From assembly GCA_016196885.1 (NCBI GenBank), contig JACPWU010000039.1, positions 30,001 to 62,000 of the forward strand: a stretch of DNA of 32,000 bases, in the 5' to 3' direction. Both the position numbers and the translations under genes were made by a program. The DNA is from Chlamydiota bacterium. GTDB lineage: Bacteria; Auribacterota; JACPWU01. Position 1 is the first letter of the stretch, and every line of letters starts with the position of its first letter. The notes beneath the pieces were generated by a model. It searched no databases. It was not told the origin of the DNA and saw only the letters and a program-made list of their open reading frames with translations. Positions 9,401 through 31,696 of this stretch are shown piece after piece.

Positions 9401-12400
9401 GATGCAAGCGAAAGTATGGACGATATGCAAAGGATGGATTCTGCGGTGGGTTATAACGCCCTGAAAGGCGCTTTTATCATGATGGAAACTTTAGAAAATT
9501 TGGGGATCGATTTTAATGTCAGGTGGATTGGAGATACGACAGGTTTATACAAGCGATTTAAAAATCAACCTAATCCGGAGGGAGAAAATATTCCCAACAG
9601 TTTTTCGACGCGTATGGATCGGGAAAAAATCATTCAATCCATGTACGAGTCCATCGGTCAAAAAGGGGGGACAAATGATGCGCTTGCGATTCAAGAAACG
9701 ATCAAAGATATTGAGCGCTATGGGGCTGAAAATCACTATGTAACCGTATTTACGGATGGTATGGGGACGATTCCTCAGGTTCAGGAAATTCTGCAAAAAG
9801 TTCGTGAAAACAAAGGGCGGATCGGGCGATCCAAAACTGAATTTATTGGGGTTGGACTCGGAAATGCAACCAAAATTGTCCCTGATGTTTATGGAAAAGA
9901 ATATTCCATCCATTTGAAGGATCATGAGCTTAGGGAATTACCGGTTCGAATCAAGCGCCTCATGGAGCGTTTGATCAATCGGATTTATCGAGAGGATACC
10001 ACTCGAAAAGCGCCTAGCCCTCTTTCTGGGACTTCCATGAGCGGGGCCAGTGTGGATGGGATGATTGGGCAAGGAAATGCGATTGTTGAGTTCCTAGAGG
10101 AACTCAACAGTTCAAGGTTCAAAAGTTCAAAAGATCAAAGGTTAGAACAGGAGTTTGCGGATGTATTAGACGGACATGAGGTCTATGTCTTTGACGCTCT
10201 CATCAAGGGGCCGCATGATTTTGTGCTGGGGTATCGGGATAAAGTGAATAAAAGGCTTTATGTTTCACGAGAAGTCCTTCACCGCTTGGAAGGCCGTCCG
10301 AATGTTTTACGGGAATATCTCTTTCACGAAGCCCATTGTGACCCGGATGTCGAGGGAAGCCATTATCAAACCATCGCTGAGCAGCAAAGGCTCTATCCCG
10401 AAAATTACATAGGCATGGGATATTTTAGAAATGAAGAGGGGGTTCTTCTTTATTATGCAAGAAATCCCTATCTCAATGAAATGCTTGGATTTTTATGGGA
10501 AATGATACATCCCCTTGAAAAATGGTTTCCGTTTCTGGCTCGTCTTTCTCCTAAGATTGCGAAAGGGGTGTTGGGAAAAGTTTTACGTTCAGTGATCGAA
10601 GAAGAGTTAAAGAATGAAGCACCCCGAAAATATCCTTATAAATACAGAAGCTTTTCTCAAGCCAAGTCTTCTTATGAGAAGGAGCATGGAAAGATTCCTG
10701 AAATATGTCTGAATAGGATGGAGATGCTGCCTTCTTACAGGAAGAGGATTAAACAATTTGGTTTTGAAGATATGTTGCTTTTGCTACCGAACTCTCCTGC
10801 CCGCATGCCCGAGCTTCTAAGACTACTTGAGTGTTTGGAAAAAGTATTTGGAGAGGATGTCCCTCTTTTCTGGCCAGATTTTATGCGTTTGGTTAGTGGA
10901 TCGAGGGATCGAGAGGGCTTGGACTGGAATCCAGGTCTTTTGGAAGGGCTCTTGGATTCTTTTGATGTGCGTTTACCAAGCTATTATTCTCGACAGGAAA
11001 GAAAGAGATGGTTTCAAGAAGCCGTCGATCTGAACTTACGGGCAGGAGCATACGCCTTCGATTTTTGGGAGAGAGCCATGAGGTTCAATGTACTTGGGCT
11101 TGCACTGGATCAACGACAACTCCAAGAAGTCGGAAATATTGTGTTATCTGCAAATGAGAAGTTAGGATCTATGAGAGACAAAGATTTTTTCTCTATCGTT
11201 GGAAGTTGGGGGGAAGCGTTCAAGAGTATAGATCAATTAAGGGAGGCCGTTCAGAAAATCGTTGCAGTGATGAGTCCCTCATACATTCACGATTCGGAAG
11301 CTGCGGACATTGCCTCTATATCGAGAGAATCCAGTGGTTTTGCTGTTGTCTGGAAACTCTGGAGTCGGGTTCAAGAGAGTGAAAGAGAAGTTTTAATTTC
11401 TATGGTTACCAAGATTTGGAGACTTAATATTCAGACCCCTTCTACTAAAGCAAGAATTCTAGAGCATTTCCAATCCATCGCCGATGAAAGCGGCCCGGAC
11501 GCGATTGTCGGGGATTTGGAGGCGTTGTTGGAACGCCTTAAGAAGCCTGTTGGGGATGATGAAGGGGATGTGTATGAATTAGCGACTCCATTGACAGTTC
11601 TAACTCAAGGAGGTTATTTGCCATCAACTTCTTTTTCTCAGGGAGGCTACATTGCCCAAGGGACAGAAGCCAAGGCAGAGTTTTTAGAGAATTTAGCTGC
11701 GGGGAGATATGAGTTTTGCCGAAGGAAGGATTTTGAGGAGGGTTTTAAAAAGATTTTAGAGGGTTATGAGGTTTATGTCGTTCCTGCAATTATCAAGGGA
11801 CCGGATGATTTTTTCCTGGGAACGAAGGACTTCACTCAAAGGAGAATTTATGTGACAGCAGAAGTTTTGGGAATTTTATGCCAATGGTATCGTGATCCGA
11901 AAGACTGTCGTCGTTTGATCAGCGAATATTTCTGGCATGAGGTTCATGAAGAACCTTCACCTGAGCGGCATGAGAGTCTCATTCAGGAGCAGCAAGTCAA
12001 ATTTAAGCAGAATTACACGGGTAAGGGCTACAAGAAAGGGTCTGGTTACTTGATAGATCCTCAGAAGCAAGGCAAGGTTGCCAAAGGAGAATTGGGAGAC
12101 GCCCTGTGTCATTTGATCACCAAAACCCTTCAAGGGGGGCAAACGCCTAAAGATTTCGTGAAGGATGCCTTTAAAGCCTATCGTGCGATTTATGGGAAGG
12201 AAGTCGATTTGGATCAGTGGGATAATGTTGAGGGTGCGTTGATTCCTAACCTGGATCTTTGGGTGGAAATTTTTGGCGTGAAAAGGCTTTTGGAATATAA
12301 CGCCCTTTTCAACAAAGGTTTCCTTTCCGAAGATTATTTTGAGATGTTAACGGGTCTTTCTTTTTCCTATGCATCGGGGGACCCTTTTAAAATGCTGGAA

Positions 12401-16406: not shown

Positions 16407-16467
16407 GGTGTTAGGTTAGAAATTTGGTTAGAAATAGCCTTCTCTTCTAGAAGGTATTGTGTTTCTT

Positions 16468-17643
16468 TTACTTCAAAATAGCGTCAATTCCTTCCTGCCA
16501 GGGGAGGGCTCTTGTATGTTTTATTTTTTGGGGTTGGGGATCCCGAGACAAGAGATAGCTTTCGGTTTTATTCATCTCACTTGAGAAGGTTTCCAGATGT
16601 TTTGCATCTTTAGGATCAACATGTTTTGAGGACTTAATCTCAACAAGCGCCAAAGGCTTTCCGGGTCGCTCGATGATAAAATCAATTTCAGCTCCGTCAT
16701 GTGTTTTAAGATAAGAAAAACGAAAGTTCTTGTTGAGGTATTCACTGCGGCGTACCAGCTCTAGAAAGACAAGGTGTTCAAACGCATTTCCAAAGGCCGA
16801 AGTCTGTTCAAGAAGGAGGACGGTTAACGTCCGATCTAAGGCTCGCTTAACCCCTGTGTCAAAGAAATAAAATTTAGGGTTGGTCAGTTGTCGTTTTCTC
16901 AAGGAGGAGTGATAAGCAGGAACCAAAAATCCCAGCAGTGTATCTTCTAGAATTTGGAAATAAGACTGAACTGTTTTTGTGTCGACACCTACATCACGGG
17001 AAATCTTGGTGTAATTAATAATCTCACCATTCATTTGTGCAGCCACTTCTAAAAAATTTCCGAAGGGTTCTAGCTTGCGGATAAGTTGTTCATTCCAAAT
17101 TTCTTCCTTTAAGTAGGTCCGGCTATAGGCCTCCAAGTATCGGGTTTTCATCTCTTTTTTTGGAAGACACCAGGGCTCAGGCAACATTCCGTATTCCAGG
17201 GCCATTTGAAGATGGGAAGGGTGGGTGCCTGCCTCAAGAAAAGTGAGAGGAAATAGGTGATAGACAAACGCTCGTCCTGCCAGAAGATTGGGTGCGCCCC
17301 GTTTCAATTTTCGAGCGCTTGAACCTGTCATGATAAATTGAAGGGGAGTCCCTTTACGTTTACGTTCCTCTAACTTTCTGTGTATCACATCCAAAAGGCG
17401 TGGAACTTTTTGAATTTCATCGATAACAATGCGTTTACAGGACTGAGGAAGCTCATCCACCATTCGTCCTAACCTCTCGGGGTCTCGAAGAAAAAGATTT
17501 TCCTGTTCAAGGTCCAGAAGATCAATAAAAATGGTATCTTCTTTTTTAAAGCAGGCATGCAAAAGAGAGGTTTTCCCTGTGCCTCTTGCACCCAAGAGAA
17601 AAAAGCTATGTTTTTGTGGGAGCTTTAATATTCTATGGACCAT
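16468..17643 (-). CDS. AAA_14/DUF4143-family ATPase, second divergent paralog
   Basis: 391-aa ORF with Walker A GARGTGKTS and Walker B IVIDEIQ. The C-terminal DGAEIDFIIE...LALVEIK is encoded at about 16633-16689. Confidence 0.85.
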   Translation of the reverse strand: MVHRILKLPQKHSFFLLGARGTGKTSLLHACFKKEDTIFIDLLDLEQENLFLRDPERLGRMVDELPQSCKRIVIDEIQKVPRLLDVIHRKLEERKRKGTPLQFIMTGSSARKLKRGAPNLLAGRAFVYHLFPLTFLEAGTHPSHLQMALEYGMLPEPWCLPKKEMKTRYLEAYSRTYLKEEIWNEQLIRKLEPFGNFLEVAAQMNGEIINYTKISRDVGVDTKTVQSYFQILEDTLLGFLVPAYHSSLRKRQLTNPKFYFFDTGVKRALDRTLTVLLLEQTSAFGNAFEHLVFLELVRRSEYLNKNFRFSYLKTHDGAEIDFIIERPGKPLALVEIKSSKHVDPKDAKHLETFSSEMNKTESYLLSRDPQPQKIKHTRALPWQEGIDAILK

Positions 17644-17908: not shown

Positions 17909-18074
17909 TCCCAAGGACAGAGATAGAAAATGAGAACCGAGACGCGACAGGTTGGCCCAGATGGACTTGAAGAAAATTCGAGGCATACCTGCAAGGTATG
18001 TCGAGATTTTCTGAAAGTTCAGATGGGTCAACCTGTCGCGTCTCGGTTCTCATTTTCTATCTCTGTCCTTGGGA
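17909..18074 (+). repeat. 166-nt long hairpin (46-bp perfect outer stem, ~35-bp imperfect inner stem, 5-nt loop)
   Basis: 17909-17954 is the exact reverse complement of 18029-18074. The inner arms 17955-17989 and 17995-18028 pair with three tandem G.A/A.G mismatches and three G:T pairs. The loop tgcaa is at 17990-17994. Confidence 0.9.
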
Positions 18075-18861: not shown

Positions 18862-18943
18862 ATTCCCCTCCCTGGATGGGAGGGGTTAGGGGAGGGTGGA
18901 AAATACATCAAAAATCAAAATGTAAATATCAAAGGGGAGAGGA
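18862..18943 (+). repeat. G/C-tract repeat element, copy 3 (intergenic variant with the C-rich arm replaced)
   Basis: attcccctccctggatgggaggggttaggggagggtgg matches the left half of copies 1 and 2. The tail caaaggggagagg matches the element's 3' end. The centre is an unrelated A/T-rich stretch. It lies between the trmJ-like gene and era. Confidence 0.75.
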
Positions 18944-19879: not shown

Positions 19880-20028
19880 TGTTTTGGGCACAAACGTTCC
19901 AAATAGCAACAGGTATTTTTTTGAGTTTGTTTTGAGATTTTTTGTAATATCTTTATTTTAAATGAGTTATGGCGCAATTTATTTTTAGAAAAATGGGGCA
20001 TAAAAAATGCTGTAATCAATCATTAAAA

Positions 20029-20821: not shown

Positions 20822-20890
20822 GTTGTAGGTTATAGGTTTAAAGTTTTAAAGGAGTTTATTTTTTACTTACATCTTATAGCTTCCCTTCCA
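20822..20890. repeat. Heptad-arm inverted repeat E1 with conserved AT-rich loop
   Basis: Left arm is GTTGTAG GTTATAG GTTTAAAG (20822-20843). Loop is TTTTAAAGGAGTTTATTTTTT (20844-20864). Right arm is a CTTACAT CTTATAG CTTCCCT tcca (20865-20890). The arms are only partly complementary. It starts 2 nt after the stop codon, and a CTCAC-rich tract follows at 20901-20940. Confidence 0.6.
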
Positions 20891-21001
20891 ATGTGTTACA
20901 ACTCACCACGCACTACTCACCCCTCACCATTCACTAACGACTTGAATCAGAATCTCTTTGCCTTTCTTTTTCATTTTGAAATTTATTCCCTTACCCTTAC
21001 A

Positions 21002-21424
21002 ATGACACGCATGAAATCTCACACGGAATATCTTTGGTTTAATACCCAGAGGCATCGTGAGTACATTAATATGACCGATCGGGTCAGAGAGGCCCTTGAA
21101 AAAAGCGGGATTCAAGAGGGCATGGTTTTGGTCTCGGCCATGCATATTACGGCGGGTGTCTATGTCAATGATGCTGAAAACGGCTTGATTCAAGACATTG
21201 ATGAAATGCTTCAAAGGCTGGCCCCGGAAGGTCCGCCTTATCAACATCACCTGACAGGTGAGACAAATGGCGATGCCCATTTGAAAAATTTATTGATCGG
21301 CCATCAAGTGATGCTGCCCGTCACAAAAGGAAAATTAGATTTGGGTCCCTGGGAACAGGTCTATTATGCGGAATTTGATGGACAGAGGAAGAAGAGAGTC
21401 ATTGTGAAAGTGATAGGGGAGTGA
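21002..21424 (+). CDS. yjbQ: YjbQ/UPF0047 family protein (secondary thiamine-phosphate synthase-like)
   Basis: The track ORF starts at 20891, but its first 37 codons lie in the low-complexity CTCAC repeat. The family-typical length (~140 aa) fits a start at 21002 or 21011. Motifs include [22 protein letters not shown] and [14 protein letters not shown]. Confidence 0.8.
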
Positions 21425-21457
21425 AATCAATAATGAAATCTAAGCAGAAGTAGAAAG

Positions 21458-22498
21458 ATGATTACAAAAGAAGACATTATCAATCAATTGCGTCATGTCC
21501 ATTATCCCGGCTTCACCCGAGACATCGTATCTTTCGGTGTGATCCGGGACGCTATTTTTGAAAATGGACGTGTCGAGATTGTGCTTTCTTTTACGACAGA
21601 GGCACCTGATAAACGAGGCCAAATTCAAGAAGGGATTCGAAAGGCGCTTTCTTCCTTGCCCGAAGTGAAGGAAATAAACTTCAAGGTGGTTGATATTCCT
21701 CAGGGCTCCCCTCGGGATCGGGCCATGCTGGAAAGAAAAGAAATTCCAGGGGTGCGAAATGTCATCGCTGTGGCCAGTGGGAAGGGCGGTGTTGGAAAAT
21801 CAACGGTGGCGGTGAATTTGGCCTGTGCCTTAAAAATGTTGGGAAGAAAAGTGGGCCTTTTAGATGCGGACATTTATGGACCGAGTATTCCCATCATGAT
21901 GGGGCTTTACGATCGGCCTGGGTTGGCGGAAGATCAGAAATTCATTCCCCCTCAAAAATTTGGTTTGGCGATGATGTCTCTGGGGTTTTTTATAGAAGGG
22001 GATAGCCCGGTGATTTGGAGGGGACCCATGGTGACGGGTGCCATTCGCCAATTGCTTTATGATTCTCAATGGGGAGGGTTAGACGATTTGGTCGTGGATC
22101 TTCCCCCGGGGACAGGGGATGCTCAACTCACCTTGGTTCAATTGGCGCCGTTGAAGGGGGCTGTGATTGTGACCACGCCTCAAGACGTGGCTTTGGTGGA
22201 TGCCCGCAAAGGGGTTTCCATGTTTCAAAGGTTAGAGGTCAAAATTTTTGGGATTGTGGAGAACATGAGTTATTTTATTTGTCCTCATTGCCAACATGAG
22301 ACAGATATTTTGAGTCGCGGGGGAGGAAAGAGAGAAGCCGAACGCTTGAGTGTTCCTTTTTTAGGTGAAATTCCTATGGATTCTAGTATTTGCTCTGGAG
22401 GGGATGGGGGGGTTCCTATTGTGATTCAATCTCCAGAGTCTGAGGTGTCAAGAGCTTTTCTCCATTTAGCGCAGTCGGTTGTAGGACAGCTAAGTTAG
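21458..22498 (+). CDS. apbC: Mrp/ApbC/NBP35-family Fe-S cluster carrier ATPase
   Basis: 346 aa with an N-terminal DUF59-like region, the deviant Walker A VASGKGGVGKST, and the CPHC motif (FICPHCQHE). Confidence 0.93.
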   Translation: MITKEDIINQLRHVHYPGFTRDIVSFGVIRDAIFENGRVEIVLSFTTEAPDKRGQIQEGIRKALSSLPEVKEINFKVVDIPQGSPRDRAMLERKEIPGVRNVIAVASGKGGVGKSTVAVNLACALKMLGRKVGLLDADIYGPSIPIMMGLYDRPGLAEDQKFIPPQKFGLAMMSLGFFIEGDSPVIWRGPMVTGAIRQLLYDSQWGGLDDLVVDLPPGTGDAQLTLVQLAPLKGAVIVTTPQDVALVDARKGVSMFQRLEVKIFGIVENMSYFICPHCQHETDILSRGGGKREAERLSVPFLGEIPMDSSICSGGDGGVPIVIQSPESEVSRAFLHLAQSVVGQLS

Positions 22499-22528
22499 AA
22501 TATTCTTATTTCTTCAGATTCTTTTTTG

Positions 22529-22558
22529 TTGCAATTTTTATCACCAAGGTTTTATAGT
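22529..22558 (+). promoter_or_regulatory. Possible sigma70-type promoter for the DUF4912/GH57 genes
   Basis: TTGCAA at 22529-22534, an 18-nt spacer, then TATAGT at 22553-22558. This is a sequence match only. Confidence 0.3.
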
Positions 22559-22629
22559 AGTCCCAATAGGAGGTTGAATGTGTTTTCCACACTTCAAACG
22601 CTTCTTATATTTGGTGAACGAGGGGGTTC

Positions 22630-23631
22630 ATGGAAAAGAAAACTTTTCAGGGGAAAAAAGATGTTACTCAAGAGAAACCGTCCGTTGTTGCGGAAGTTCC
22701 TAAAAGTTTATCCTCTGAAAAATCCCCTTCCAATTTAGTCCAACCAGATTCTGTTTTAGAAACTCACGCACAGGAAACTGTCGAAGATTCCAAGTTCTAC
22801 ATGGCCCAACAAGGTTGGCCTCTCCCGATGCCGTCTCGGGATCTTGCTTACGATTATGGAGATAATCGCATCGTTTTAATGCCCGTGGATTCTTTTTGGG
22901 CTTTCAGTTATTGGGAAGTGACGAAGGAGCGGGTGGAGGAGGGGCTTCGTTTCTTGGGGTGTTCGCTCGATCAAACGAAGACCGTGCTGCGGGTTTATGA
23001 TGTGACGGGACTCGAGGGGACAGAGGGCTCTCATCATCATTATGACGTGGAGCTTTCGGGAAGGGTCCGGAATTGGTATTTGAATTTGAACGCACCGGAC
23101 CACTCTTTCAGGGTGGATATTGGTTTAAGAAACCGAGAGGGCCGCTTCTTTACCTTGGCGCGTTCCAATACCGTTACCATGCCCCGGGCGGGTGTTTCGG
23201 ATGTGGTAGATGAGCGCTGGATGAGCATGGAATTTGAAAAGATGTACGCCCTTTCCGGAGGGCTTAAAGTAGGTGAGGGTTCGATCGAGCTTCGTCAATT
23301 GATGGAGAAGCGTTTTCAAGAAGGTTTATCTTCCGGGGCGCTCTCCAGTTTCGGGTCCAGTCCCGTGAAGAGAATGGAAAAATCCTTTTGGTTTGTTTTG
23401 GATACAGAGCTCGTTGTCTATGGTGCGACAGAGCCTGATGCGCATGTCACCGTGGCTGGACAACCGGTTCAATTGAGGCCCGATGGCACTTTTACCTTGA
23501 GACTTGCATTACCCGACGGTCGCTTTCCCATTTCAGCAAAGGCTGAGTCCTCAGATGGTAGAGAGGAAAGAACGATCACACCTGTTGTTCAGAGGAACAC
23601 GGAAATTTCCCAACCTGTTCTTAAAAGCTAG
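22630..23631 (+). CDS. DUF4912 domain-containing protein
   Basis: 333 aa with RBS gaggggg before the ATG. DNRIVLMPVDSFWAFSYWEV resembles the DUF4912 signature. It lies directly upstream of a GH57 gene, an association I recall as common. Confidence 0.7.
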   Translation: MEKKTFQGKKDVTQEKPSVVAEVPKSLSSEKSPSNLVQPDSVLETHAQETVEDSKFYMAQQGWPLPMPSRDLAYDYGDNRIVLMPVDSFWAFSYWEVTKERVEEGLRFLGCSLDQTKTVLRVYDVTGLEGTEGSHHHYDVELSGRVRNWYLNLNAPDHSFRVDIGLRNREGRFFTLARSNTVTMPRAGVSDVVDERWMSMEFEKMYALSGGLKVGEGSIELRQLMEKRFQEGLSSGALSSFGSSPVKRMEKSFWFVLDTELVVYGATEPDAHVTVAGQPVQLRPDGTFTLRLALPDGRFPISAKAESSDGREERTITPVVQRNTEISQPVLKS

Positions 23632-23710
23632 TCGTGAGTTGTTAGTTGTGAGTCGTTAGTTTTAAGGGTATTTATTTTTTACTCACGACTCACCCCTCAC
23701 GACTCACGAC
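23631..23710. repeat. Heptad-arm inverted repeat E2 with conserved loop
   Basis: Left arm is GTCGTGA GTTGTTA GTTGTGA GTCGTTA GT. Loop is TTTTAAGGGTATTTATTTTTT (23660-23680). Right arm is ACTCACG ACTCACC CCTCACG ACTCACG AC (23681-23710). It overlaps the stop codon by 1 nt. Confidence 0.85.
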
Positions 23711-23720
23711 GGATTCACCT

Positions 23721-25310
23721 ATGGAAAAAGGCTATTTAGCATTTGTCTTGCACGCACATCTGCCCTTTGTGAGGCATCCAGAACATGATTATTTTCTGGA
23801 GGAGAATTGGCTCTATGAAGCCATCACAGAGACGTATATCCCTTTGATTGATGTGTTCAATGGGCTTTTGAAGGATGGCGTGGATTTTCGGATCACGATG
23901 ACCTTGTCGCCCTCCCTCGTTGCGATGTTGGCAGATCCTCTTTTACAATATCGCTATTTGCGGCATATTCAGAAGTTGATTGAACTGGCCCATAAAGAAG
24001 TGGATCGCACCCGCTGGCAAAGTGATTTTCATCCCTTGGCCTTGATGTATTATCATAAATTCAATCGGGCCAAAGAAGTTTTCGCAAATCAATATCAAAA
24101 CAATTTGCTTCAGGCCTTCAAGAACCTTCAAGATGCAGGAAAACTCGAAGTGATCACCTGTGCTGCCACGCATGGGTTTTTGCCCTTGATGGGGGTGAAC
24201 GCCAATGGAATGAAGGGCATTCGGGCCCAGATCAAAATCGCGGTGGAACAATATGAAAAACATTTCGGCCGCCGTCCGCGCGGGATTTGGCTTCCGGAAT
24301 GCGGGTATGCCCCGGGGATTGATGAAATCCTAAGAGAGGCGGGCCTTAAATTTTTCTTCGTTGAGACGCATGGAGTTTTGCATGCGACCCCCCGGCCCAA
24401 ATACGGGGTTTTTGCGCCTCTTTATTGTCCCTCGGGTGTTGCGGCCTTTGGGCGGGATATGGAATCTTCGAAACAGGTTTGGAGTGCCATAGAGGGTTAT
24501 CCGGGGGACTATGAATATCGGGAGTTTTACCGAGATGTCGGCTTTGATTTAGATTTTGAATATGTCCGGCCTTATATCACGCCCGATGGCAAGCGAGTTC
24601 AGACCGGCATCAAGTATTATAAAATCACAGGGCCTTCCTTGGATAAAAAACCTTACGTGCCAGCTCGGGCCATGGAGAAGGCCGCTTCTCATGCGGGCAA
24701 TTTCATGTTCAATCGTGAGAAACAAATGGAATTTGTTTCGAGTCTCATGGATCGGAAGCCCATCATTGTGGCGCCCTACGATGCCGAGCTTTTGGGTCAT
24801 TGGTGGTATGAGGGTCCTGATTGGCTTAATTTTCTGATTCGCAAAATCTATTATGATCAGAAGACGATTAAGCTGATTGGCCCCATGGAATATTTGGAGA
24901 CGTATCCTACAAATCAAGTGGCCACTCCTTCCATGTCCACGTGGGGCTATAAGGGATTTAATGAGGTGTGGTTGAATGGCTCGAATGATTGGGTTTATCG
25001 CCATTTACATAAGGCGACAGATCACATGGTGGAGTTGGCCAATCGCTTTCAGTCGGCCAATGGCTTGGTGGGACGTGCCGTGCGCCAGGCGGCTCGAGAG
25101 CTTCTTTTGGCGCAGTCCAGCGACTGGGCGTTTATTATGAAGACGGGCACCATGGTGGAATACGCGGTCAAAAGAACGAAAGAGCATCTCTTGCGCTTTG
25201 ACGATCTTTATCATCAAGTTTGTGAAAATAGAGTGAATGAATCCTTCCTGAATGAGATTGAATCTAAAGATAATATTTTTCCGGATTTGGATTATAGAGT
25301 GTATTCTTAG
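23721..25310 (+). CDS. Glycoside hydrolase family 57 1,4-alpha-glucan branching enzyme
   Basis: 529 aa. The N-terminus GYLAFVLHAHLPFVRHPE is typical of GH57 branching enzymes. It also has GIWLPECGY and AELLGHWWYEG motifs. Confidence 0.9.
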   Translation: MEKGYLAFVLHAHLPFVRHPEHDYFLEENWLYEAITETYIPLIDVFNGLLKDGVDFRITMTLSPSLVAMLADPLLQYRYLRHIQKLIELAHKEVDRTRWQSDFHPLALMYYHKFNRAKEVFANQYQNNLLQAFKNLQDAGKLEVITCAATHGFLPLMGVNANGMKGIRAQIKIAVEQYEKHFGRRPRGIWLPECGYAPGIDEILREAGLKFFFVETHGVLHATPRPKYGVFAPLYCPSGVAAFGRDMESSKQVWSAIEGYPGDYEYREFYRDVGFDLDFEYVRPYITPDGKRVQTGIKYYKITGPSLDKKPYVPARAMEKAASHAGNFMFNREKQMEFVSSLMDRKPIIVAPYDAELLGHWWYEGPDWLNFLIRKIYYDQKTIKLIGPMEYLETYPTNQVATPSMSTWGYKGFNEVWLNGSNDWVYRHLHKATDHMVELANRFQSANGLVGRAVRQAARELLLAQSSDWAFIMKTGTMVEYAVKRTKEHLLRFDDLYHQVCENRVNESFLNEIESKDNIFPDLDYRVYS

Positions 25311-25443
25311 AGAAATCCAAAATCCAAAAATCAAAATCCAAAATGACAGTCCAAAAATCAAAATTTTTCAATGCAACAACATCAGGGACATTTTGGATTT
25401 TGGTGTGTCATTTTGATTTTTGATGTTTGATTTTTGGATTTCT
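25311..25443. repeat. Heptad-arm inverted repeat E3 between convergent genes (different loop)
   Basis: The left arm (25311-25364) is built of AAATCCA/AAAATCA heptads. The right arm (25390-25443) is built of ATTTTGG/TTTTGAT heptads. The 25-nt spacer is unrelated to the E1/E2/E4/E5/E7 loop. The right arm encodes the last ~18 codons of the PAP2 ORF. Confidence 0.85.
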
Positions 25444-25954
25444 TCTCCATTTTTCTCCATCCAAAAGCCATGATCATTCCTAAAATGGCACCTCCCAAAA
25501 CATCCGAGGGATAATGGACCCCCATGTAAATTCTGGATAAGGAAACAGCCACCGTGAGGAAGCCTAAAAACCCCACCCAACTTGGATAATAAAATCCTAA
25601 GAACACAGCGATGGCAAAAATACTCATGGCATGACCTGAAGGAAAAGAGGGAGAGTCGGGACAGGCTGTTCGTACGATGGCTTCTTGAAGGACATGGCAG
25701 GGACGCGGGCGGTGGAAGAGAGGTTTAAAGACTTCATGGGAAAGAACGTTGACACTTGCTAAGAGAAGCACTGCAAAGAGGGCGATTCTCCAGCGGTCTT
25801 TTCTCTTGGATAAAAAAGTGCTTAACGCAACGAGTAAAAACCACCCAAAGGATTTAAATTCAGTGATCCAGAGGAAAAAAATGTCCAGAACTCGACTTTG
25901 GATTTGATTGATAGAATGAAAAATAGCGAGGTCCCACTGAGTGAGCATGTGCAT
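25382..25954 (-). CDS. PAP2-family phosphatase (membrane)
   Basis: 190 aa with KPLFHRPRP, PSGH and SRIYMGVHYPSD, the three PAP2 acid-phosphatase motifs. It has multiple hydrophobic helices. Confidence 0.9.
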   Translation of the reverse strand: MHMLTQWDLAIFHSINQIQSRVLDIFFLWITEFKSFGWFLLVALSTFLSKRKDRWRIALFAVLLLASVNVLSHEVFKPLFHRPRPCHVLQEAIVRTACPDSPSFPSGHAMSIFAIAVFLGFYYPSWVGFLGFLTVAVSLSRIYMGVHYPSDVLGGAILGMIMAFGWRKMEKKSKNQTSKIKMTHQNPKCP

Positions 25955-26131
25955 GAGATCGTTCTCTCTTTACTTCGTAGATAACTTTATCTCGGCCTTA
26001 AGAAAATTAAGATTAGAATTTCTGGGGCAAGGAGGGTGAAGCTTGCTCCCGTGTCTAAAATCATAGGACAGATATGAGTTCGAGAGGGACCTTGAACTTT
26101 GGCGTGAATCAAAATGACATTAGATTGTGGG

Positions 26132-26377
26132 TTAAAGTGGAATATGCTCATGAAAACAAGCAGCAATATCTTCCGGCCAATCGTTTGAATAAACAGTCAT
26201 CAAGAGAGGTTCTCGACTCTTCTGAGCTGCTTTGTGAACATCTAAAGGATCTGGGCTATGAGCCAGAAGACGACCCTGTACAGGTGTTGTTGTAGACTCG
26301 TCCATTCTATCAATGGCAATGAGGAGCCATTCTTTCTGGAATTGTTTGCGAAGCTTTTCAAGCTTCTGAGATTTCAT
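26132..26377 (-). CDS. Small hypothetical protein (81 aa)
   Basis: The composition is protein-like (KEWLLIAIDRMDESTTTPVQGRLLAHSPD), and it is on the same strand as PAP2. It competes with an overlapping + strand ORF (26074..26295) that looks less protein-like. The RBS is weak. Confidence 0.45.
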   Translation of the reverse strand: MKSQKLEKLRKQFQKEWLLIAIDRMDESTTTPVQGRLLAHSPDPLDVHKAAQKSREPLLMTVYSNDWPEDIAACFHEHIPL

Positions 26378-26425
26378 CCTTTTATTATAACATGTTTTGA
26401 AAGGTAAACAGGGTAAATATAAGGA

Positions 26426-26586
26426 AAAATAGTTTTAGGCATATGCACTTGATTCCCCTTTGTAGTCGCCCGATTCATCGGGCAAACCCATGCAAGGGGC
26501 ACAGCCCCATGAATGGGGCGACTACAACTTCTTGCCATGGCGCTTGTTATCTAAGGGGAATCAAGTGCATATGCCAAAATAGTTTT
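26426..26586. mobile_element. MITE-like nested element: 11-bp direct repeats, 23-bp terminal inverted repeats, REPIN-like core
   Basis: AAAATAGTTTT occurs at 26426-26436 and 26576-26586. ggcatatgcacttgattcccctt (26438-26460) is the exact reverse complement of 26553-26575. The core at 26461-26526 is listed separately. Confidence 0.7.
26461..26526 (+). repeat. REPIN-like doublet (two GTAG-headed palindromes in inverted orientation), copy 1
   Basis: tGTAGtcGCCCGAttcaTCGGGC ... GCCCCATgaATGGGGCgaCTACa. The 10-bp closing stem is tgtagtcgcc/ggcgactaca. Confidence 0.7.
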
Positions 26587-26664
26587 TCAATAAAGCTTTT
26601 TCTCTGGTAAAATCTAGAAGCAGGAAGCGGGTTGGAATCGGTCTTTGTCCAGGGCGAGGGTTCT

Positions 26665-27672
26665 ATGTTTCTCGTTCGCAGCATTGAGAAAAGAGATTTG
26701 AGTGCGTTCTTTCGCTTGGCTTCCATTCTTGATACTTATAATCTTCCCAAAGATAAAGAATTACTCGCCCAGATTATTCAGACCTCTTTAAATTCTTTTA
26801 AAGGAAATCTTAAAAACCCTCATGAAGGTCGTTTTGTGTTTGTGGCCGAGGAGTTGAGTTCTGGAAAGATTGTGGGCACTTCTGAAATTTTGGCAAAGCG
26901 AGGTCTGCCTCATAATCCTTTCATTTACTGTGATGTGGGGGAGGATTGTTTAAAGAGTCGGACCCTTCATAAAGAAGTGAAACACCGATATATTAAACTT
27001 TGCTCGACTTTGGATGGAGCCACAGAGATTGGAGGGTTGGTGGTAGATCCTCGTTATCGGGGGAAGGGGAGAGGCGTGGGAAAGGCCTTGTCTTATGTGC
27101 GCTTTATGTATATGAAGTTTCATCCCAGAAAATTTCAGAAGAGGGTGTTGGCAGAGCTTTTGGCTTATTTGACCCCGAAAGGGGAGAATCCCCTGTGGGA
27201 TGTTTTAGGAAAACATTTTACGGGTCTTTCTTATCATCGGGCGGATCGTTTGAGTGTTTTTAACAAAGAATTTATTTTGTCCTTGTTCCCTGCTGAGAAA
27301 ATCTACACCTGTCTTTTGCCGGAGCGTGTTCAGAGAATTTTAGAACGGCCCGGGCTTCATACTGTTCCCGCTCAGGTTTTACTGGAGAAAATTGGGCTTA
27401 AATATTTGCGTCAAGTGGATCCATTTGACGGGGGGCCCCTCTATGGAGCAAAGTTGAGTGATGTAACGATTTATCAAAAGACGAAGCTCTACCCTTTTTC
27501 TGGAATGTGTGAAGAAGGCAAAGAGGGCTTGCTTCTTTTTGAAGAATCATCCCGTGTGAAAGCCTGTTATGGTTTAGCAAAAATAATGGGTGAAAATATT
27601 TTTCTTAATCTTGAATCAGTGCGGGCTTTAAATATCCGCAAGGGGAATAGAGTTTTGTTTTATCGTTTTTAA
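26665..27672 (+). CDS. astA: Arginine N-succinyltransferase (AstA family)
   Basis: The track ORF starts at a TTG (26632). The ATG at 26665 has RBS gaggg 5 nt upstream and gives an N-terminus MFLVRSIEKRDLSAFFRLAS, collinear with AstA N-termini. Length is about 335 aa. Confidence 0.8.
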   Translation: MFLVRSIEKRDLSAFFRLASILDTYNLPKDKELLAQIIQTSLNSFKGNLKNPHEGRFVFVAEELSSGKIVGTSEILAKRGLPHNPFIYCDVGEDCLKSRTLHKEVKHRYIKLCSTLDGATEIGGLVVDPRYRGKGRGVGKALSYVRFMYMKFHPRKFQKRVLAELLAYLTPKGENPLWDVLGKHFTGLSYHRADRLSVFNKEFILSLFPAEKIYTCLLPERVQRILERPGLHTVPAQVLLEKIGLKYLRQVDPFDGGPLYGAKLSDVTIYQKTKLYPFSGMCEEGKEGLLLFEESSRVKACYGLAKIMGENIFLNLESVRALNIRKGNRVLFYRF

Positions 27673-27706
27673 CGAACGACGATGAACAAACGACGCAGAA
27701 CGGTTT

Positions 27707-27831
27707 TGCTATGAAAGTGAGGCTCATTTTGTAGTCGCCCCATTTATGGGGCTGCCGTGTGCCCCTTGCATGGATTGCCCGATGAATCGGGCGACTACAA
27801 AAAAAGCATGATTGGGAGAACTTTCATAGCA
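27707..27831. repeat. REPIN-like element, copy 2 (inverted relative to copy 1) within a 12-bp outer inverted repeat
   Basis: The core at 27730-27799 is the reverse complement of the 26461-26526 family, with small indels. The outer inverted repeat is tgctatgaaagt (27707-27718) / actttcatagca (27820-27831). Confidence 0.7.
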
Positions 27832-27863
27832 CACGATGATCTCGAAAGATCATTAAAATTTAT

Positions 27864-28787
27864 ATGAGAGCTCTGGTTGTAGGGGATCCTTCTTTTTTTA
27901 GAATTAGATCGGGGTCTAATCCTCATACTCGAAACAGATGGGGAGTGAAGAAGTGTGTAGATTTGGATTTAGCCAAGCGCCAATGGAAGAATTTTGTAGA
28001 TCGTTTAGAAGAGATGGGTGCTCGGGTGTATGTGATTCCTCCTGTGAAGGATTGTCCCGGAATGGTTTTCCCCGCGAATGCAGGGGTTGTGATTCCAAGG
28101 GAAGAAAAGATTCCCTTTTCTAAAAAAACTTTTCTCTTAAGTTCATTGATCGAAGGGCGCAAAAGTGAAACGAATTATGACGAGCCTTTTTTTCGCCAAT
28201 TGGGTTTTCAAATTGAGAAGATTTCTTGCCCCTTTGAGGGGGAGGCCGATTTTTTCCAGGCAGGGTCTTATTTTATTTTTACATATGGGAAGATTCTCCC
28301 TCAACATTTTCGGATGAAGAGGGGGTGGCCACCTTATGAAAGAGTCTATGGGTTTAGAAGCAGTTTGAATTTCTTAGAGACGGTGACGAAATGGATTTCT
28401 CGCGAGCGCATTTTGCCTTTGGAATTGGCGGATGAACGATTTTATCATGGCGATACGGTTTTTTGCCCATTTGGAGAAGGCTATGATCATGTGCTTGCCT
28501 ATCTACCAGCCCTCACGTCTCAGGCTCAAGGTTTGTTGAAAGAGCATCTCGTCGATCGCTTGATTTTGTTGAGTGATGAGGATGCCTTTAAATACGCAGC
28601 AAATTCTTTTTATTTATCCACAGAGAAGGGGAAATTTCTTATCATGCCTTCGGGTGTGAGTCCCCAGTTAAGGGATCAGGTGATAGAACGGGGGGTGACT
28701 CCCATCGAGATCAATGTGTCTGAATTTTTCGAAAAAGGGGGAGGCTCTGTCAAGTGTATGATTTTAGACTTGGGGCCGATGGGTTAA
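27864..28787 (+). CDS. Amidinotransferase/DDAH-fold (guanidino-group modifying) hydrolase
   Basis: 307 aa. FYHGDTVFCPF resembles the H-x-D-T catalytic stretch of this superfamily. The C-terminal GGGSVKCM carries the expected nucleophilic Cys. Confidence 0.7.
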   Translation: MRALVVGDPSFFRIRSGSNPHTRNRWGVKKCVDLDLAKRQWKNFVDRLEEMGARVYVIPPVKDCPGMVFPANAGVVIPREEKIPFSKKTFLLSSLIEGRKSETNYDEPFFRQLGFQIEKISCPFEGEADFFQAGSYFIFTYGKILPQHFRMKRGWPPYERVYGFRSSLNFLETVTKWISRERILPLELADERFYHGDTVFCPFGEGYDHVLAYLPALTSQAQGLLKEHLVDRLILLSDEDAFKYAANSFYLSTEKGKFLIMPSGVSPQLRDQVIERGVTPIEINVSEFFEKGGGSVKCMILDLGPMG

Positions 28788-28790
28788 GAA

Positions 28791-28860
28791 CAGTTGTGAG
28801 TGGTGAGAGGTGAGTTTTAAAGGTATTATTTTTTTACTCACCCCTCACCCCTCACGACTG
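28791..28860. repeat. Heptad-arm inverted repeat E4 with conserved loop
   Basis: Left arm is cag TTGTGAG TGGTGAG AGGTGAG. Loop is TTTTAAAGGTATTATTTTTTT (28815-28835). Right arm is a CTCACCC CTCACCC CTCACGA ctg, followed by TTTTAT. It starts 4 nt after the stop codon. Confidence 0.85.
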
Positions 28861-28879
28861 TTTTATAATACTTAAGTTC

Positions 28880-28908
28880 TTGCTATCCCAATTGTTCTAT
28901 CTTATACT
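28880..28908 (+). promoter_or_regulatory. Possible sigma70-type promoter upstream of cheW
   Basis: TTGCTA at 28880-28885, a 17-nt spacer, then TATACT at 28903-28908. This is a sequence match only. Confidence 0.35.
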
Positions 28909-28971
28909 GTTCGTGGGTTCGAGGTTTCTAAAATTGAAGGTTGCTCATAAAGGGAATTCTATTACCTCACG

Positions 28972-29481
28972 ATGAGTCAACAGGATCAAGCCGAAAGCCC
29001 ACTTTCTCTTTACGAAGAGGAGTTGTACGGGGAGAAGGAAGTTCGAGAAGCGACCCGTCAGCTCATCGTCTTTTCTTTAGGCCCAGAATACTATGGGCTT
29101 GATGTTTGCGGTGTTTGTGAGGTTCTTGCGTCTTCTCAGATGACGCTTCTTCCGAATGTTCCGCCCCATATCAAGGGGATTATCAATTTGCGAGGGATCA
29201 TTCTTTCCGTTTCAGATCTCAAGGTAATCTTGGGTCTTCCAGAAAGTTCTCAAAATCAAAAAAATCAGATTGTGGTTGCCCAGAGCTGTAAGATAGCCAC
29301 AGGTTTCTGGGTGGATGGGAACACGGAGTCTATTGAAATTTCCATTTCAAAAATTCAACCTTTGGTTTCAACATTAGATGCCCAGAAGGCTTCTCTGATG
29401 CAGGGTCAGGTGGATTATTTGGGAAGGTTGGTAACGGTGTTGGATGTGGATGCAGTGATTCAGAAGACGAGGGTGGGATAA
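28972..29481 (+). CDS. cheW: Chemotaxis coupling protein CheW
   Basis: 169 aa with a CheW-like domain: LIVFSLGPEYYGLDV...VPPHIKGIINLRGIILSVSDL. Confidence 0.9.
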   Translation: MSQQDQAESPLSLYEEELYGEKEVREATRQLIVFSLGPEYYGLDVCGVCEVLASSQMTLLPNVPPHIKGIINLRGIILSVSDLKVILGLPESSQNQKNQIVVAQSCKIATGFWVDGNTESIEISISKIQPLVSTLDAQKASLMQGQVDYLGRLVTVLDVDAVIQKTRVG

Positions 29482-29486
29482 AAAAA

Positions 29487-29550
29487 TAGCGTTCAGCATT
29501 CAGCGTACAGTTTATAAGGAATAATTTTTTTCCTGAACGCTGAACGCTGA
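29487..29550. repeat. Heptad-arm inverted repeat E5 with conserved loop
   Basis: Left arm is ta GCGTTCA GCATTCA GCGTACA g. Loop is TTTATAAGGAATAATTTTTTT (29511-29531). Right arm is cc TGAACGC TGAACGC TGA. Several pairing registers are possible. Confidence 0.85.
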
Positions 29551-29564
29551 AAAAGGGGGGGGAT

Positions 29565-30941
29565 ATGAGCAAACTCTGGTTTGCAGTGTGGTGGACGGCA
29601 TTCATGATGGGCTTTTTAGAAGTGGCGCATGCCGACGAGGTTTCGGATTTGAAAGAGACCGTTCGCCAGATGCAGGTCCAAATGGCGGTCATGCAAGAGG
29701 AGATTCAAGGTTTAAAGACGCAACTTCGTTCTCAGGAGGCAAGCACTGTTTCGAGTCCTGCTCAAGCAGGGGCGCCGTCAGATGTTGCCACACTCAAAGA
29801 AGAAATGGCAGCCGTTGAAGAACAAGAGAAGGGGACTTTGGAACGCTTGGATGAGATGGTGAATTTTGATTTATATGCAACGCTGGCTTTTGAAAATTTT
29901 CAGAATACAGATTCTGCTTTTGATGCCCGCAATGTTGAACTTTTGGCAAGTGCTCATATGACGGATCGGTTGAAGGTCTATACAGAAATTGAGTTTGAAC
30001 GGGCCTCTACAACCTTAGATGAACCTCAGCAGGGTGAAATTGAAGTGGAACAAGGGTGGTTAGAATATACGATCAATGATTATTTTAAGCCACGGTTTGG
30101 CGTCATGTTGGTTCCATTTGGAAAGTATAACTTAGAACATTTTGAGCCCTATCAAGAATTAACAGATCGGCCTATTGCTATCAGGCGAATCATACCCACC
30201 ACCTGGGCGGAGGCAGGCGCGGGATTTACGGGCAATGCTTTTTTAGGAGATAAAGTGGGTGCTGAAGCGTTGAAAGATTTGTCGCTCAATTACCAAATTT
30301 ATCTCGTGAATGGTTTAACCGATTTGATCAGTGACACAGGCACTCGAGATGCAAAAGGTAATTTTGGTTTTGATAGCAATAACAACAAGGCTTTTGTGGG
30401 CCGTTTGGGGATCAGTCCTCTTTCGGATCAGGAGGTGGGTGTCAGCGGCTATGTGGGTGATTATGATAGGGAGAATAACACCCTCTCAGGTGTGGATGTG
30501 GATTGGCATTTTAGCATTTCAAAATTTGAGTTGGTGGGAGAATATGCCTTCCTGAATCTTGAAGAAGGTTTTCAAGGATCTGAAGGAGATGAGGAAGATA
30601 TATTGGCATCTCCCTTGCTTGTTCCTGACAGCATGGATGGAGGCTATGTGGAACTCCGTTATCATTTTTGGTTTGAATGTTTAAACGGTACTTTTTTGAG
30701 AAGAGGTTTTGAGAGTCCCACGTTCACAGCTGTTCTGAGGTACGATCGGGCCACCATCGCGGATGATACAGATGAAGGGGGGGGTGATAATCAGGAAGAA
30801 CGATGGACCCTAGGGTTAAATTATCGTCCTGTCCAGACATGGGTGTATAAAGCGGAGTATCAATTTAACGAGACGGACCATGAGGTTCTTGAACGGGGTG
30901 ATAACGATGGGTTTATTGCTTCCGTGACGGCTGCGTTTTAA
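29565..30941 (+). CDS. Outer-membrane porin-like beta-barrel protein with N-terminal coiled-coil segment
   Basis: 458 aa with RBS gggggggg. The signal peptide ends AHA|DEV. A heptad-like helical stretch (VSDLKETVRQMQVQMAVMQEEIQGLK) is followed by an alternating beta-strand pattern. The C-terminus ASVTAAF ends in Phe. Confidence 0.75.
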   Translation: MSKLWFAVWWTAFMMGFLEVAHADEVSDLKETVRQMQVQMAVMQEEIQGLKTQLRSQEASTVSSPAQAGAPSDVATLKEEMAAVEEQEKGTLERLDEMVNFDLYATLAFENFQNTDSAFDARNVELLASAHMTDRLKVYTEIEFERASTTLDEPQQGEIEVEQGWLEYTINDYFKPRFGVMLVPFGKYNLEHFEPYQELTDRPIAIRRIIPTTWAEAGAGFTGNAFLGDKVGAEALKDLSLNYQIYLVNGLTDLISDTGTRDAKGNFGFDSNNNKAFVGRLGISPLSDQEVGVSGYVGDYDRENNTLSGVDVDWHFSISKFELVGEYAFLNLEEGFQGSEGDEEDILASPLLVPDSMDGGYVELRYHFWFECLNGTFLRRGFESPTFTAVLRYDRATIADDTDEGGGDNQEERWTLGLNYRPVQTWVYKAEYQFNETDHEVLERGDNDGFIASVTAAF

Positions 30942-30945
30942 TAAT

Positions 30946-31062
30946 ACCGTACATCGTGCATCGTACTTCGTACTTCGAATACCGTGCAATCGCAATTTCG
31001 TTGTTACGATGTTCGATGTTCGCTGAACGATGTACTGCCTTTAAGTACGATGCACGATGCAC
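30946..31062. repeat. Heptad-arm inverted repeat E6 (long, different centre)
   Basis: Left heptads are ACCGTAC ATCGTGC ATCGTAC TTCGTAC TTCGAAT. The outer stem gtacatcgtgcatcgtactt (30949-30968) pairs with aagtacgatgcacgatgcac (31043-31062) at 19 of 20 positions. The inner part is made of GATGTTC-type heptads. Confidence 0.8.
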
Positions 31063-31083
31063 TGTCTTTAAGAGGAGAGGTCT

Positions 31084-31551
31084 ATGAAAAGAGTGTTATC
31101 CATTTTACTGGTGATGGCTGGGCTTCTGGCTGCCTCAGGAGTTTACGCAAAAGAGATTGCGGTGATTGTGAATAAGGAGAATGGGACGAGCAACCTTTCG
31201 ATGTCTGAGCTCTCCAGAATTTACGAGGGGAAGATGACGAGTTGGTCGAATGGTTCTCGTATGATGGTTATCAATCGGCCAACGGCTTCCCCGATCCGTT
31301 CGGCTTTTTATCGAACGGTGTTGGGGGTCGAGGCCGGCAAGCAATTTTTTCAGCCGGGGAGTCCCGTGCCTTTTAAGACGATGATTCAAGAATCGGATAC
31401 GGCGACGAAACGCATGGTGAGTCAAATGCCCAATGCAGTGGGCTATATCTATGTTGATGCGTTGGATGATACGGTCAAGGCCGTTTCGATTGATGGGGCC
31501 TCTCTGACACCCGATGATATTAGCAGTGGAAGATATGCTTTGAAGGAATAG
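31084..31551 (+). CDS. PstS-like (PBP_like_2) periplasmic substrate-binding domain protein, short
   Basis: 155 aa with strong RBS aggagagg. The signal peptide ends VYA|KE. IAVIVNKENGTSNLSMSELSRIYEGKMTSW is typical of phosphate-binding-protein-like domains. Confidence 0.7.
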   Translation: MKRVLSILLVMAGLLAASGVYAKEIAVIVNKENGTSNLSMSELSRIYEGKMTSWSNGSRMMVINRPTASPIRSAFYRTVLGVEAGKQFFQPGSPVPFKTMIQESDTATKRMVSQMPNAVGYIYVDALDDTVKAVSIDGASLTPDDISSGRYALKE

Positions 31552-31558
31552 GGAAAGA

Positions 31559-31634
31559 CAGTCGTGAGTGGTGAGTCGTGAGGGGTGAGTTTTATAGGTA
31601 TGATTTTTCACTCACGACTCACCCCTCACGACTG
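31559..31634. repeat. Heptad-arm inverted repeat E7 with conserved loop
   Basis: Left arm is cag TCGTGAG TGGTGAG TCGTGAG GGGTGAG. Loop is TTTTATAGGTATGATTTTT (31590-31608). Right arm is ca CTCACGA CTCACCC CTCACGA ctg, followed by TTTTAC. Extra CTCAC units follow at 31645-31657. Confidence 0.85.
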
Positions 31635-31696
31635 TTTTACTCTTACTCACCCCTCACGGCAGTTTTTACGGTTTTAGAAGAAAGGAGCTTTTGACC

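Follow-up and report, generated by a model that had tools for sequence, protein, structure and literature searches.

Inverted heptad repeats behind stop codons in a 32-kb Chlamydiota window: a lineage-specific version of a known, poorly understood heptamer-repeat class

Heptamers are the commonest class among the long simple sequence repeats (SSRs) of bacteria, and the idea of polymerase slippage has been raised for them (Mrazek 2007, as summarised in PMC4679880). In Xanthomonas, 186 arrays of the unit GGGAATC were described, 89-93% of them intergenic and at a mean distance of 28 nt behind the upstream open reading frame (ORF); 70-75 occur as convergent pairs, most are transcribed, their presence varies between species, and a function was not found (PMC4692102). 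Geobacter metallireducens carries multicopy sites made of four or five tandem hepta- or octanucleotides that are paired on opposite strands (PMC2700814), and TAACTGA repeats are known from Beggiatoaceae, Cyanobacteria and Bacteroidetes (PMC4679880). Published work on heptamer repeats ends with a "function still to be elucidated". Here we describe seven inverted repeats, E1 to E7, with arms of tandem heptads, which stand directly behind stop codons in a stretch of 32,000 nt from a Chlamydiota bacterium (contig JACPWU010000039.1, positions 30,001 to 62,000; hereafter the window). Five of them share an AT-rich centre of 22 nt, also called the loop. The finding is real and statistically solid, and it is a lineage-specific version of the heptamer-repeat class, which is known and poorly understood.

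The elements are like the heptameric SSRs (GGGAATC in Xanthomonas and GGGGA(C/T)T in Nostoc, Rehm et al. 2015, PMC4692102; and the cyanobacterial short tandemly repeated repetitive sequences) in having head-to-tail units of 7 nt, whose core is conserved while one or two positions vary, in being strongly intergenic and close behind the upstream ORF, often as convergent arrays able to form a stem-loop, and in varying in length and sequence between close relatives. Nevertheless, those genomes use one dominant heptad genome-wide (e.g., GGGAATC, CCCCAGT or TAACTGA), whereas the window holds at least four unrelated heptads (NNGTGAG, CGTTCAG, AAATCMA and ATCGTRC) within 11 kb. The descriptions of the heptameric SSRs mention no conserved AT-rich centre of 22 nt, and the window heptads do not form G-quadruplexes. 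The Geobacter metallireducens sites (Aklujkar et al. 2009, PMC2700814) are also inverted pairs of short heptad arrays, dispersed in multiple copies; however, they were read as binding sites of a global regulator, the spacing of their halves is variable, and neither a common centre nor an association with stop codons is stated for them. An earlier note on this DNA had not recognised the architecture as a described one. In view of these partial precedents and of at least about 30 heptad hairpins found in metagenome contigs, the architecture itself is not undescribed; what is new here is the conserved centre together with several heptad types side by side.

The seven elements are listed below, with minimum free energies in kcal/mol, z-scores from RNA folding against shuffled sequences, period-7 calls by Tandem Repeats Finder (TRF), and scores of a covariance model built on the five loop-bearing copies.

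E1, 20822-20886, plus strand: decayed copy that begins 1 nt past the stop codon; left heptads GTTGTAG GTTATAG GTTTAAAG, loop at 20844-20865 (TTTTAAAGGAGTTTATTTTTTA), right heptads CTTACAT CTTATAG CTTCCCT; z = -1.06; 70.1 bits.
E2, 23632-23709, plus strand: begins 0 nt past the stop codon and fills the DUF4912-GH57 spacer; left heptads TCGTGAG TTGTTAG TTGTGAG TCGTTAG, loop at 23660-23681, right heptads CTCACGA CTCACCC CTCACGA CTCACGA; TRF period 7; minimum free energy -38.1, z = -7.2; 79.8 bits.
E3, 25310-25444, no strand assigned: 135-nt hairpin with AAATCCA/AAATCAA arms and without the AT-rich loop motif, beginning 0-2 nt past the stop codon; TRF period 7; minimum free energy -53.2 on the plus and -53.5 on the minus strand; z = -6.8 on the plus strand and about -7 overall.
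E4, 28790-28861 (with its U-tract to 28869), plus strand: begins 2 nt past the stop codon and ends the AstA-DDAH pair; ACAG, left heptads TTGTGAG TGGTGAG AGGTGAG, loop at 28815-28836, right heptads CTCACCC CTCACCC CTCACGA, CTGT and the U-tract TTTTATAATA; minimum free energy -44.7, z = -10.7; every seventh position holds a 1-nt mismatch; 87.3 bits.
E5, 29489-29552, plus strand: begins 7 nt past the stop codon and fills the CheW-porin spacer; heptads CGTTCAG CATTCAG CGTACAG on the left and CTGAACG CTGAACG CTGAA on the right, with a related loop at 29511-29532 (TTTATAAGGAATAATTTTTTTC); z = -4.1 on the plus and -7.1 on the minus strand, diffuse ensemble.
E6, 30946-31062, no strand assigned: 117-nt nested hairpin of ATCGTRC/GYACGAT heptads in the porin-PBP spacer, beginning 4 nt past the stop codon, without the AT-rich loop motif; TRF period 7; minimum free energy -46.4 on the plus and -49.8 on the minus strand; z = -5.1 on the plus strand, spanning -5 to -7.
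E7, 31558-31635 (with an extra half to 31667), plus strand: begins 6 nt past the stop codon; ACAG, four heptads, loop at 31590-31610 (one base shorter), three heptads and CTGT-TTTA; minimum free energy -57.5, z = -7.7, with a shifted pairing register; 72.8 bits.

The earlier note had placed each element directly past a stop codon, and a direct reading bears this out: the offsets are 0-7 nt for all seven, and E1, E4 and E7 lie this close despite a spacer room of 68-125 nt. Under uniform placement, the joint probability of such offsets is about 1e-4 (our own arithmetic from the coordinates). The same note had claimed a 7-nt periodicity in both arms of every element. TRF detected period-7 arrays in the arms of E2 to E7; the arms of E1 are degenerate. 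When the whole window was scanned for tracts of three units with at most two mismatches per 14 comparisons, nine period-7 tracts were found versus 0.17 +/- 0.38 in shuffled sequences, and all nine are intergenic, while the intergenic share is about 8%. In the same scan, periods 4-6 and 8-11 stood at background.

RNA folding against shuffles gave z-scores from -4.1 to -10.7 for six of the seven elements (E2 to E7), the exception being E1, which is not a significant inverted repeat. The elements could fold into stems of 20-60 bp, which are unpaired or mismatched at each seventh nucleotide, i.e., at the variable NN of the heptad. Folding of both strands in silico showed no consistent strand preference: the plus strand is favoured in E1, E2, E4 and E7 and the minus strand in E5 and E6, with E3 equal. 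That tandem heptads allow several pairing registers, as had been proposed, is seen in the shifted best fold of E7 and in the diffuse ensemble of E5. T-runs follow only E4 and E7, as stated earlier, and these two elements precede spacers of 184 and 145 nt. A generic terminator scan found no other candidates at these gene ends (16 found versus 15.7 expected), and its consensus matched none of the elements, the loops of which are 21-22 nt or longer.

The conserved loop claimed for E1, E2, E4, E5 and E7 was recovered in full. With the E4 loop as query and up to five mismatches, the matches in the 64 kb of two-strand sequence were exactly these five loops, that of E5 lying five mismatches from that of E4; a 24-mer consensus matched three loops versus 0 expected, and the covariance model gives the five copies 70-87 bits, versus 15.5 bits for the hit ranked next. 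All five centres (22 nt, 21 nt in E7) lie on the gene strand, where their scores exceed those of the opposite strand by 30-50 bits. A look-alike at 16450-16475 (AAGGTATT...TTTTAC) is at chance level in the loop search and with the covariance model, and neither detected the degenerate loop that had been suspected behind era at 19911-19922.

A comparison anchored on the loop shows how far arms and centre differ in conservation. Among E2, E4 and E7 the arms are 71-100% identical and the loops 77-86%, and E4 and E7 share their outer ends as well (ACAG/CTGTTTTA, ACAG...CTGT-TTTA). Conservation of the loop does not exceed that of the stems in this trio, and the three are plain copies of one repeat. 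In E5, on the other hand, the arms are 38-57% identical to those of the other copies versus 59-77% for the loop, and in E1 the arms are about 50% identical to the others and no longer pair, versus 82-86% for the loop when compared with E2 and E4. The pattern of different arms around the same loop therefore rests on E5 and E1 only, and the proposal of the earlier note that variable stems with a conserved loop mark a hairpin recognised by a factor is overstated: it depends on E5 and on the non-pairing E1, and a loop-binding factor is not required. The related claim, that the arms differ between copies while complementarity is kept, holds in its second part, since compensatory differences keep the stems paired; in its first part it fails for E2, E4 and E7, which share their arm heptads. 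In the stems of the five loop-bearing copies 80% of the cells are paired versus 68% in shuffles (0 of 500 reach this value), pairing falls to 34-46% when the partners are slid, and nine pairs are changed on both sides. Across five related sequences this is suggestive of an upkeep of pairing and is not proof of it.

Several functions of the loop were considered and rejected. A sigma-70 scan placed no promoter inside any element; an AGG that might serve as a Shine-Dalgarno sequence of a small ORF is present, but no start codon stands at a usable distance; and sites for CsrA or IHF do not fit, with GGA in only two of the five loops and no WATCAA motif. Rfam 15 gave no match at gathering level, the sub-threshold ones being to eukaryotic microRNA-precursor hairpin models. 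Two scans of viral contigs with loop-plus-arm patterns gave no match. In a genome-collection scan, a degenerate loop pattern, which is unspecific, had at least 118 single matches in AT-rich genomes, none with heptad arms among the matches listed.

The history of the elements was approached through six loci from three lineages, among the nearest relatives in the databases, whose GH57 proteins share 83-85% amino-acid identity with that of the window. Four of them, L243 to L246, keep the gene order SpoU-Era-YjbQ-Mrp-DUF4912-GH57; nevertheless, their YjbQ-Mrp, Mrp-DUF4912, DUF4912-GH57 and post-GH57 spacers are short or unrelated and free of heptad hairpins like E1 or E2. The loop motif is absent from 44 kb of sequence from the relatives, both by regular expression and by covariance model. 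Because they are missing from the orthologous spacers of the relatives, the loop-bearing elements are recent, lineage-specific gains and not conserved regulatory sites. The relatives are rich in other heptad tracts, and the locus L241 has further heptads; at 289-397 it contains a clear homologue of E3, with the same AAATCMA arms and GGAAAAGAAATCC/GGATTTCTTYTCC ends, at a non-orthologous site and around an unrelated centre. In this sister family it is the arms that stay conserved from one species to the other and the centre that does not, the opposite of the loop-bearing pattern. In the window, E3 lies between the convergent GH57 and PAP2 genes, and the final ~20 codons of PAP2 (25382-25445, minus strand) lie in its right arm. 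The PAP2 ORF is 12 residues longer than its L241 orthologue in an alignment, and the C-terminal tail of this protein seems to be a replacement or an extension contributed by the repeat.

Similar structures are not confined to this lineage. A metagenome scan with the pattern TTTT-NN-(CTCACNN)x3 returned at least 120 loci; those listed contain 3.96 period-7 tracts per 10 kb versus 0.22 in 870 kb of unrelated genome loci, and at least about 30 inverted-heptad hairpins, built of many different heptads and often of two kinds per contig. Of 27 such hairpins among the matches listed, 20 have the stop of an inward-pointing ORF no more than 40 nt away, versus 18% under random placement, and their loops are unrelated to the centre found in the window. 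Inverted heptad arrays hard by stop codons, here and in unrelated environmental contigs, speak for a role of such arrays, or a tolerance of them, as structures at the 3' ends of transcripts, and one genome can hold several unrelated heptads.

The reading that we favour, and to which we would give an even chance, is that the elements are dispersed palindromic repeats with slippage-prone heptad stems, co-transcribed at the 3' ends of genes. We read the loop-bearing elements as one family that would have spread recently in this lineage, and E3 and E6 as members of sister families. Each element would be read into the transcript of the gene before it and serve there as an RNA structure of the 3' end. 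With their ACAG...CUGU clamps and U-tracts, E4 and E7 look like terminators of the intrinsic type at the ends of gene groups, which is pure inference; E2, E5 and E6, which lie in short intra-operon spacers and have no U-tract, would be at most attenuators or barriers to exonucleases. The 22-nt centre would be common to five copies by descent from one element rather than by the need for a factor that reads it. Tandem heptads may expand, contract and become homogenised by replication slippage, so that the arms would change faster than the centre, as in E1 and E5, while the centre would mutate at an ordinary rate; either selection for the hairpin or templating within the strand could keep complementarity.

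Several observations weigh against this reading. E4 and E7 are alike to Rho-independent terminators in their GC-rich stem directly past the gene, their U-tract and their position at the end of a gene group; however, their stems are of 25-30 bp with periodic mismatches, and the loops are of 21-22 nt, whereas intrinsic terminators typically have 3-8 nt. A U-tract is missing from five of the seven elements. The folding energies have no consistent strand asymmetry, so that they give no proof of selection at the RNA level and agree just as well with a role at the DNA level. The E1 loop that has outlasted its arms and the kept loop of E5 hint at a constraint on the centre or at its independent mobility, only five loop-bearing copies were examined, and the single orientation of the loops could reflect the direction of transcription or of replication, the GC skew being positive across the window.

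The main rival is a selfish element acting at the DNA level, i.e., a non-autonomous transposon of the type of the REPINs (hairpin-forming doublets of repetitive extragenic palindromic, or REP, sequences) or of the miniature inverted-repeat transposable elements (MITEs), in which a transposase encoded elsewhere would read the folded single-stranded DNA hairpin, its arms or its centre, and the position beside the stop codon would be a tolerated insertion. We regard it as possible, although clearly less probable than the favoured reading. REP sequences and the bacterial interspersed mosaic elements, REPINs and Correia-type elements are likewise short dispersed palindromes of intergenic and 3' regions, co-transcribed and capable of acting as terminators or stabilisers of messenger RNA, and some have, like the window elements, a conserved central motif between inverted arms. 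The dispersed copies share arms, centre and ends, they are present or absent when compared with close relatives, both strands fold about equally well, and E3-type copies occupy non-orthologous sites in two species. The genuine REPIN-like family in the window (GTAG-type doublets at 26459-26528 and 27728-27801), which implies that a RAYT-type system (REP-associated tyrosine transposase) is probably present in the genome, makes a selfish element more plausible. Nevertheless, the heptad elements differ from REPs and REPINs in their tandem heptad arms, variable in number and sequence, where those have either a GTAG head on an invariant palindrome of 20-35 nt or invariant terminal inverted repeats. 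No flanking direct repeat of the MITE kind, target-site duplication or common flanking target is found at E2, E4 or E7, no transposase, Y1, RAYT or integrase gene is among the genes of the window, and the uniform gene-strand orientation and extreme stop proximity are not predicted by tolerance alone.

The centre could also be a unit in its own right. The Nostocaceae small dispersed repeats SDR4-6, reportedly described by Elhai et al. in 2008, are said to be modules of 21-27 nt placed precisely in palindromes in many contexts, e.g., inside the repeat HIP1. These SDRs resemble the window elements in the ~22-nt module in the middle of a palindrome; the window differs in having two arm contexts only and in belonging to another phylum. 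Seen in this way, E3 and E6 could be "empty" hairpins. That the centre is under selection as the site where a protein recognises the loop, or that it is a very small mobile module entering the apex of pre-existing heptad hairpins in the manner of SDRs, is in our opinion improbable. In its favour, the centre is found between arms of two unrelated heptads (NNGTGAG and CGTTCAG), it has survived the decay of the arms in E1, heptad hairpins without it exist in the window (E3 and E6), other organisms have NNGTGAG/CTCACNN hairpins with unrelated short loops, all five centres have one orientation, and SDR5, cited in PMC4390886 and PMC5861425, offers a precedent. Against it, among E2, E4 and E7 the arms are at least as well conserved as the centre; E5 has the most divergent arms and also the most divergent centre, which fits descent of the whole element; no copy was found outside a hairpin or in the relatives, the listed metagenome loci or the viral contigs; the AT-rich, low-complexity sequence inflates the baseline identity; and no candidate binding protein is encoded nearby in the window. 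A broader version, which we consider similarly unlikely, is that stop-adjacent heptad hairpins are a widespread bacterial class arising from a dedicated process, the 22-nt centre being here an independent unit (a mobile module of hairpin apices or a dock for a protein or nuclease) around which the stems are free to vary. It is very improbable that the elements are regulated terminators read by a ring-shaped RNA-binding protein like HutP, which would recognise a NAG triplet at each 7-nt step of the 5' arm. NAG does close each heptad of the left arm in the five loop-bearing copies, always in one register and up against the loop (GAG or TAG in E1, E2, E4 and E7, CAG in E5), and HutP binds three XAG motifs with 4-nt spacers at two sites joined by a 12-17-nt linker and melts the hut terminator (PMC2425495). 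However, the right arms (CTCACNN, CTGAACG) have no NAG series, so that the two-site layout is missing, any heptad array trivially repeats some triplet each 7 nt, the elements follow genes instead of preceding regulated ones, HutP is a protein of the Bacillus group, and E3 and E6 have no AG series. Finally, the layout of one hairpin behind each of several same-strand genes is superficially that of integron attC recombination sites, which are likewise imperfect inverted repeats at gene 3' ends, constant in structure and variable in sequence. This identity has next to no chance of being right and is refuted for the window: RYYYAAC/GTTRRRY core sites are missing at the ends of every element, there is no integrase, and in place of variable cassette genes there are housekeeping genes that keep the same order in relatives without hairpins.

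The conserved centre that a sub-family can carry would offer a practical handle for testing movement of the whole element, movement of the centre alone, or binding. The elements also matter for annotation, as repeats of this kind fragment short-read assemblies exactly at the elements and can supply or overlap the last codons of a gene, as with E3 and PAP2. The short-read (Logan) contigs that SRR12113387 and SRR12113416 provide for the source organism match the window exactly or with a difference of 1 nt; they begin or end inside E1, E2, E4 and E7 (at 20842, 23700, 28812, 28860 and 31614) and read through E5 and E6. These breaks are consistent with the NNGTGAG-plus-loop sequence being multi-copy in the genome; the copies described here, seven elements of which five bear the loop, all come from the 32-kb window.

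The window has a GC content of ~45%, and its part from 18 to 32 kb is filled by housekeeping genes on the same strand, PAP2 being the exception. The genes of this part and the heptad arrays without a complementary partner are as follows.

18-32 kb, plus strand, in order: SpoU methylase, Era, a hypothetical protein, YjbQ/UPF0047, Mrp/ParA, DUF4912 and GH57.
Continuing to 32 kb: PAP2 (minus strand), AstA, a DDAH-like protein, CheW, a porin and a PBP-like protein.
20903-20944, plus strand: unpaired array of about six CTCAC-type heptads (AACTCAC CACGCAC TACTCAC CCCTCAC CATTCAC ...), read from the sequence.
27673-27701, plus strand: lone heptad or 14-mer tract (CGAACGA CGATGAA CAAACGA CGCAGAA), TRF period 14.
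31646-31667, plus strand: extra right half behind E7 (CTCACCC CTCACGG CAG TTTTT), read from the sequence, within the orphan region 31636-31667.

The listed start of the YjbQ/UPF0047 ORF is too early, homology beginning at Met41 (position 21011, the listed-start region being 20891-21010); since the true start is at 21011, the spacer that bears E1 is of 190 nt. The array at 20903-20944 thus lies downstream of E1 and upstream of this start. This orphan right-arm material and that at 31636-31667 may be traces of partial duplication or of nested events. The tract at 27673-27701 stands directly past the AstA stop codon and is related to the GAACG unit of E5. A promoter-like site is present at 28880-28908, downstream of E4. 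Weak runs of ATCAAAA-type heptads, related to the arms of E3, occur behind the SpoU gene (18907-18934) and fill the YjbQ-Mrp spacer of a relative (L245, 170-270).

The REPIN-like doublets mentioned above flank the AstA gene and are mutually inverted. Each consists of two inverted REP-like units that begin with TTGTAGTCGCCC and are 92-97% complementary; the copy at 26459-26528 is nested in a further palindrome with 27-nt arms (26434-26579), and that at 27728-27801 lies inside tgctatgaaagt...actttcatagca. As sequences, the doublets suggest a RAYT-type system somewhere in the genome. In L241, arrays of GGTRACN/GGCGACN heptads or 14-mers are found on both sides of AstA and behind the genes that follow it (10130-10165, 11213-11255 and 12545-12585), whereas AstA in the window is followed instead by the different heptad tract at 27673-27701 and a REPIN.

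The same L241 locus, from a relative at 84% identity, contains a transfer-messenger RNA (tmRNA) gene (start ggggtgatacggattcgac) bracketed by mutually inverted heptad arrays, at 1338-1372 upstream (GAAATTC/CGCAATC) and at 1789-1817 downstream (ATTGCGG/ATTGCAG). Because the tmRNA is bracketed in this way, an entire RNA gene can lie between heptad arms.

Upstream of the SpoU gene the window has a large inverted repeat with 69-nt arms (17909-17977 and 18006-18074), 91% complementary and 28 nt apart. A related sequence (ctcggttctcatttcctatcgctgtccttggg) is found in L241 near 7745-7790, and this repeat is therefore another shared dispersed repeat. Two paralogous DUF4143 ATPases share only 30% identity. 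Lastly, a giant ORF of more than 5037 residues (2-15115) contains an exact 45-nt tandem duplication, in 2.1 copies, at 3093-3185.

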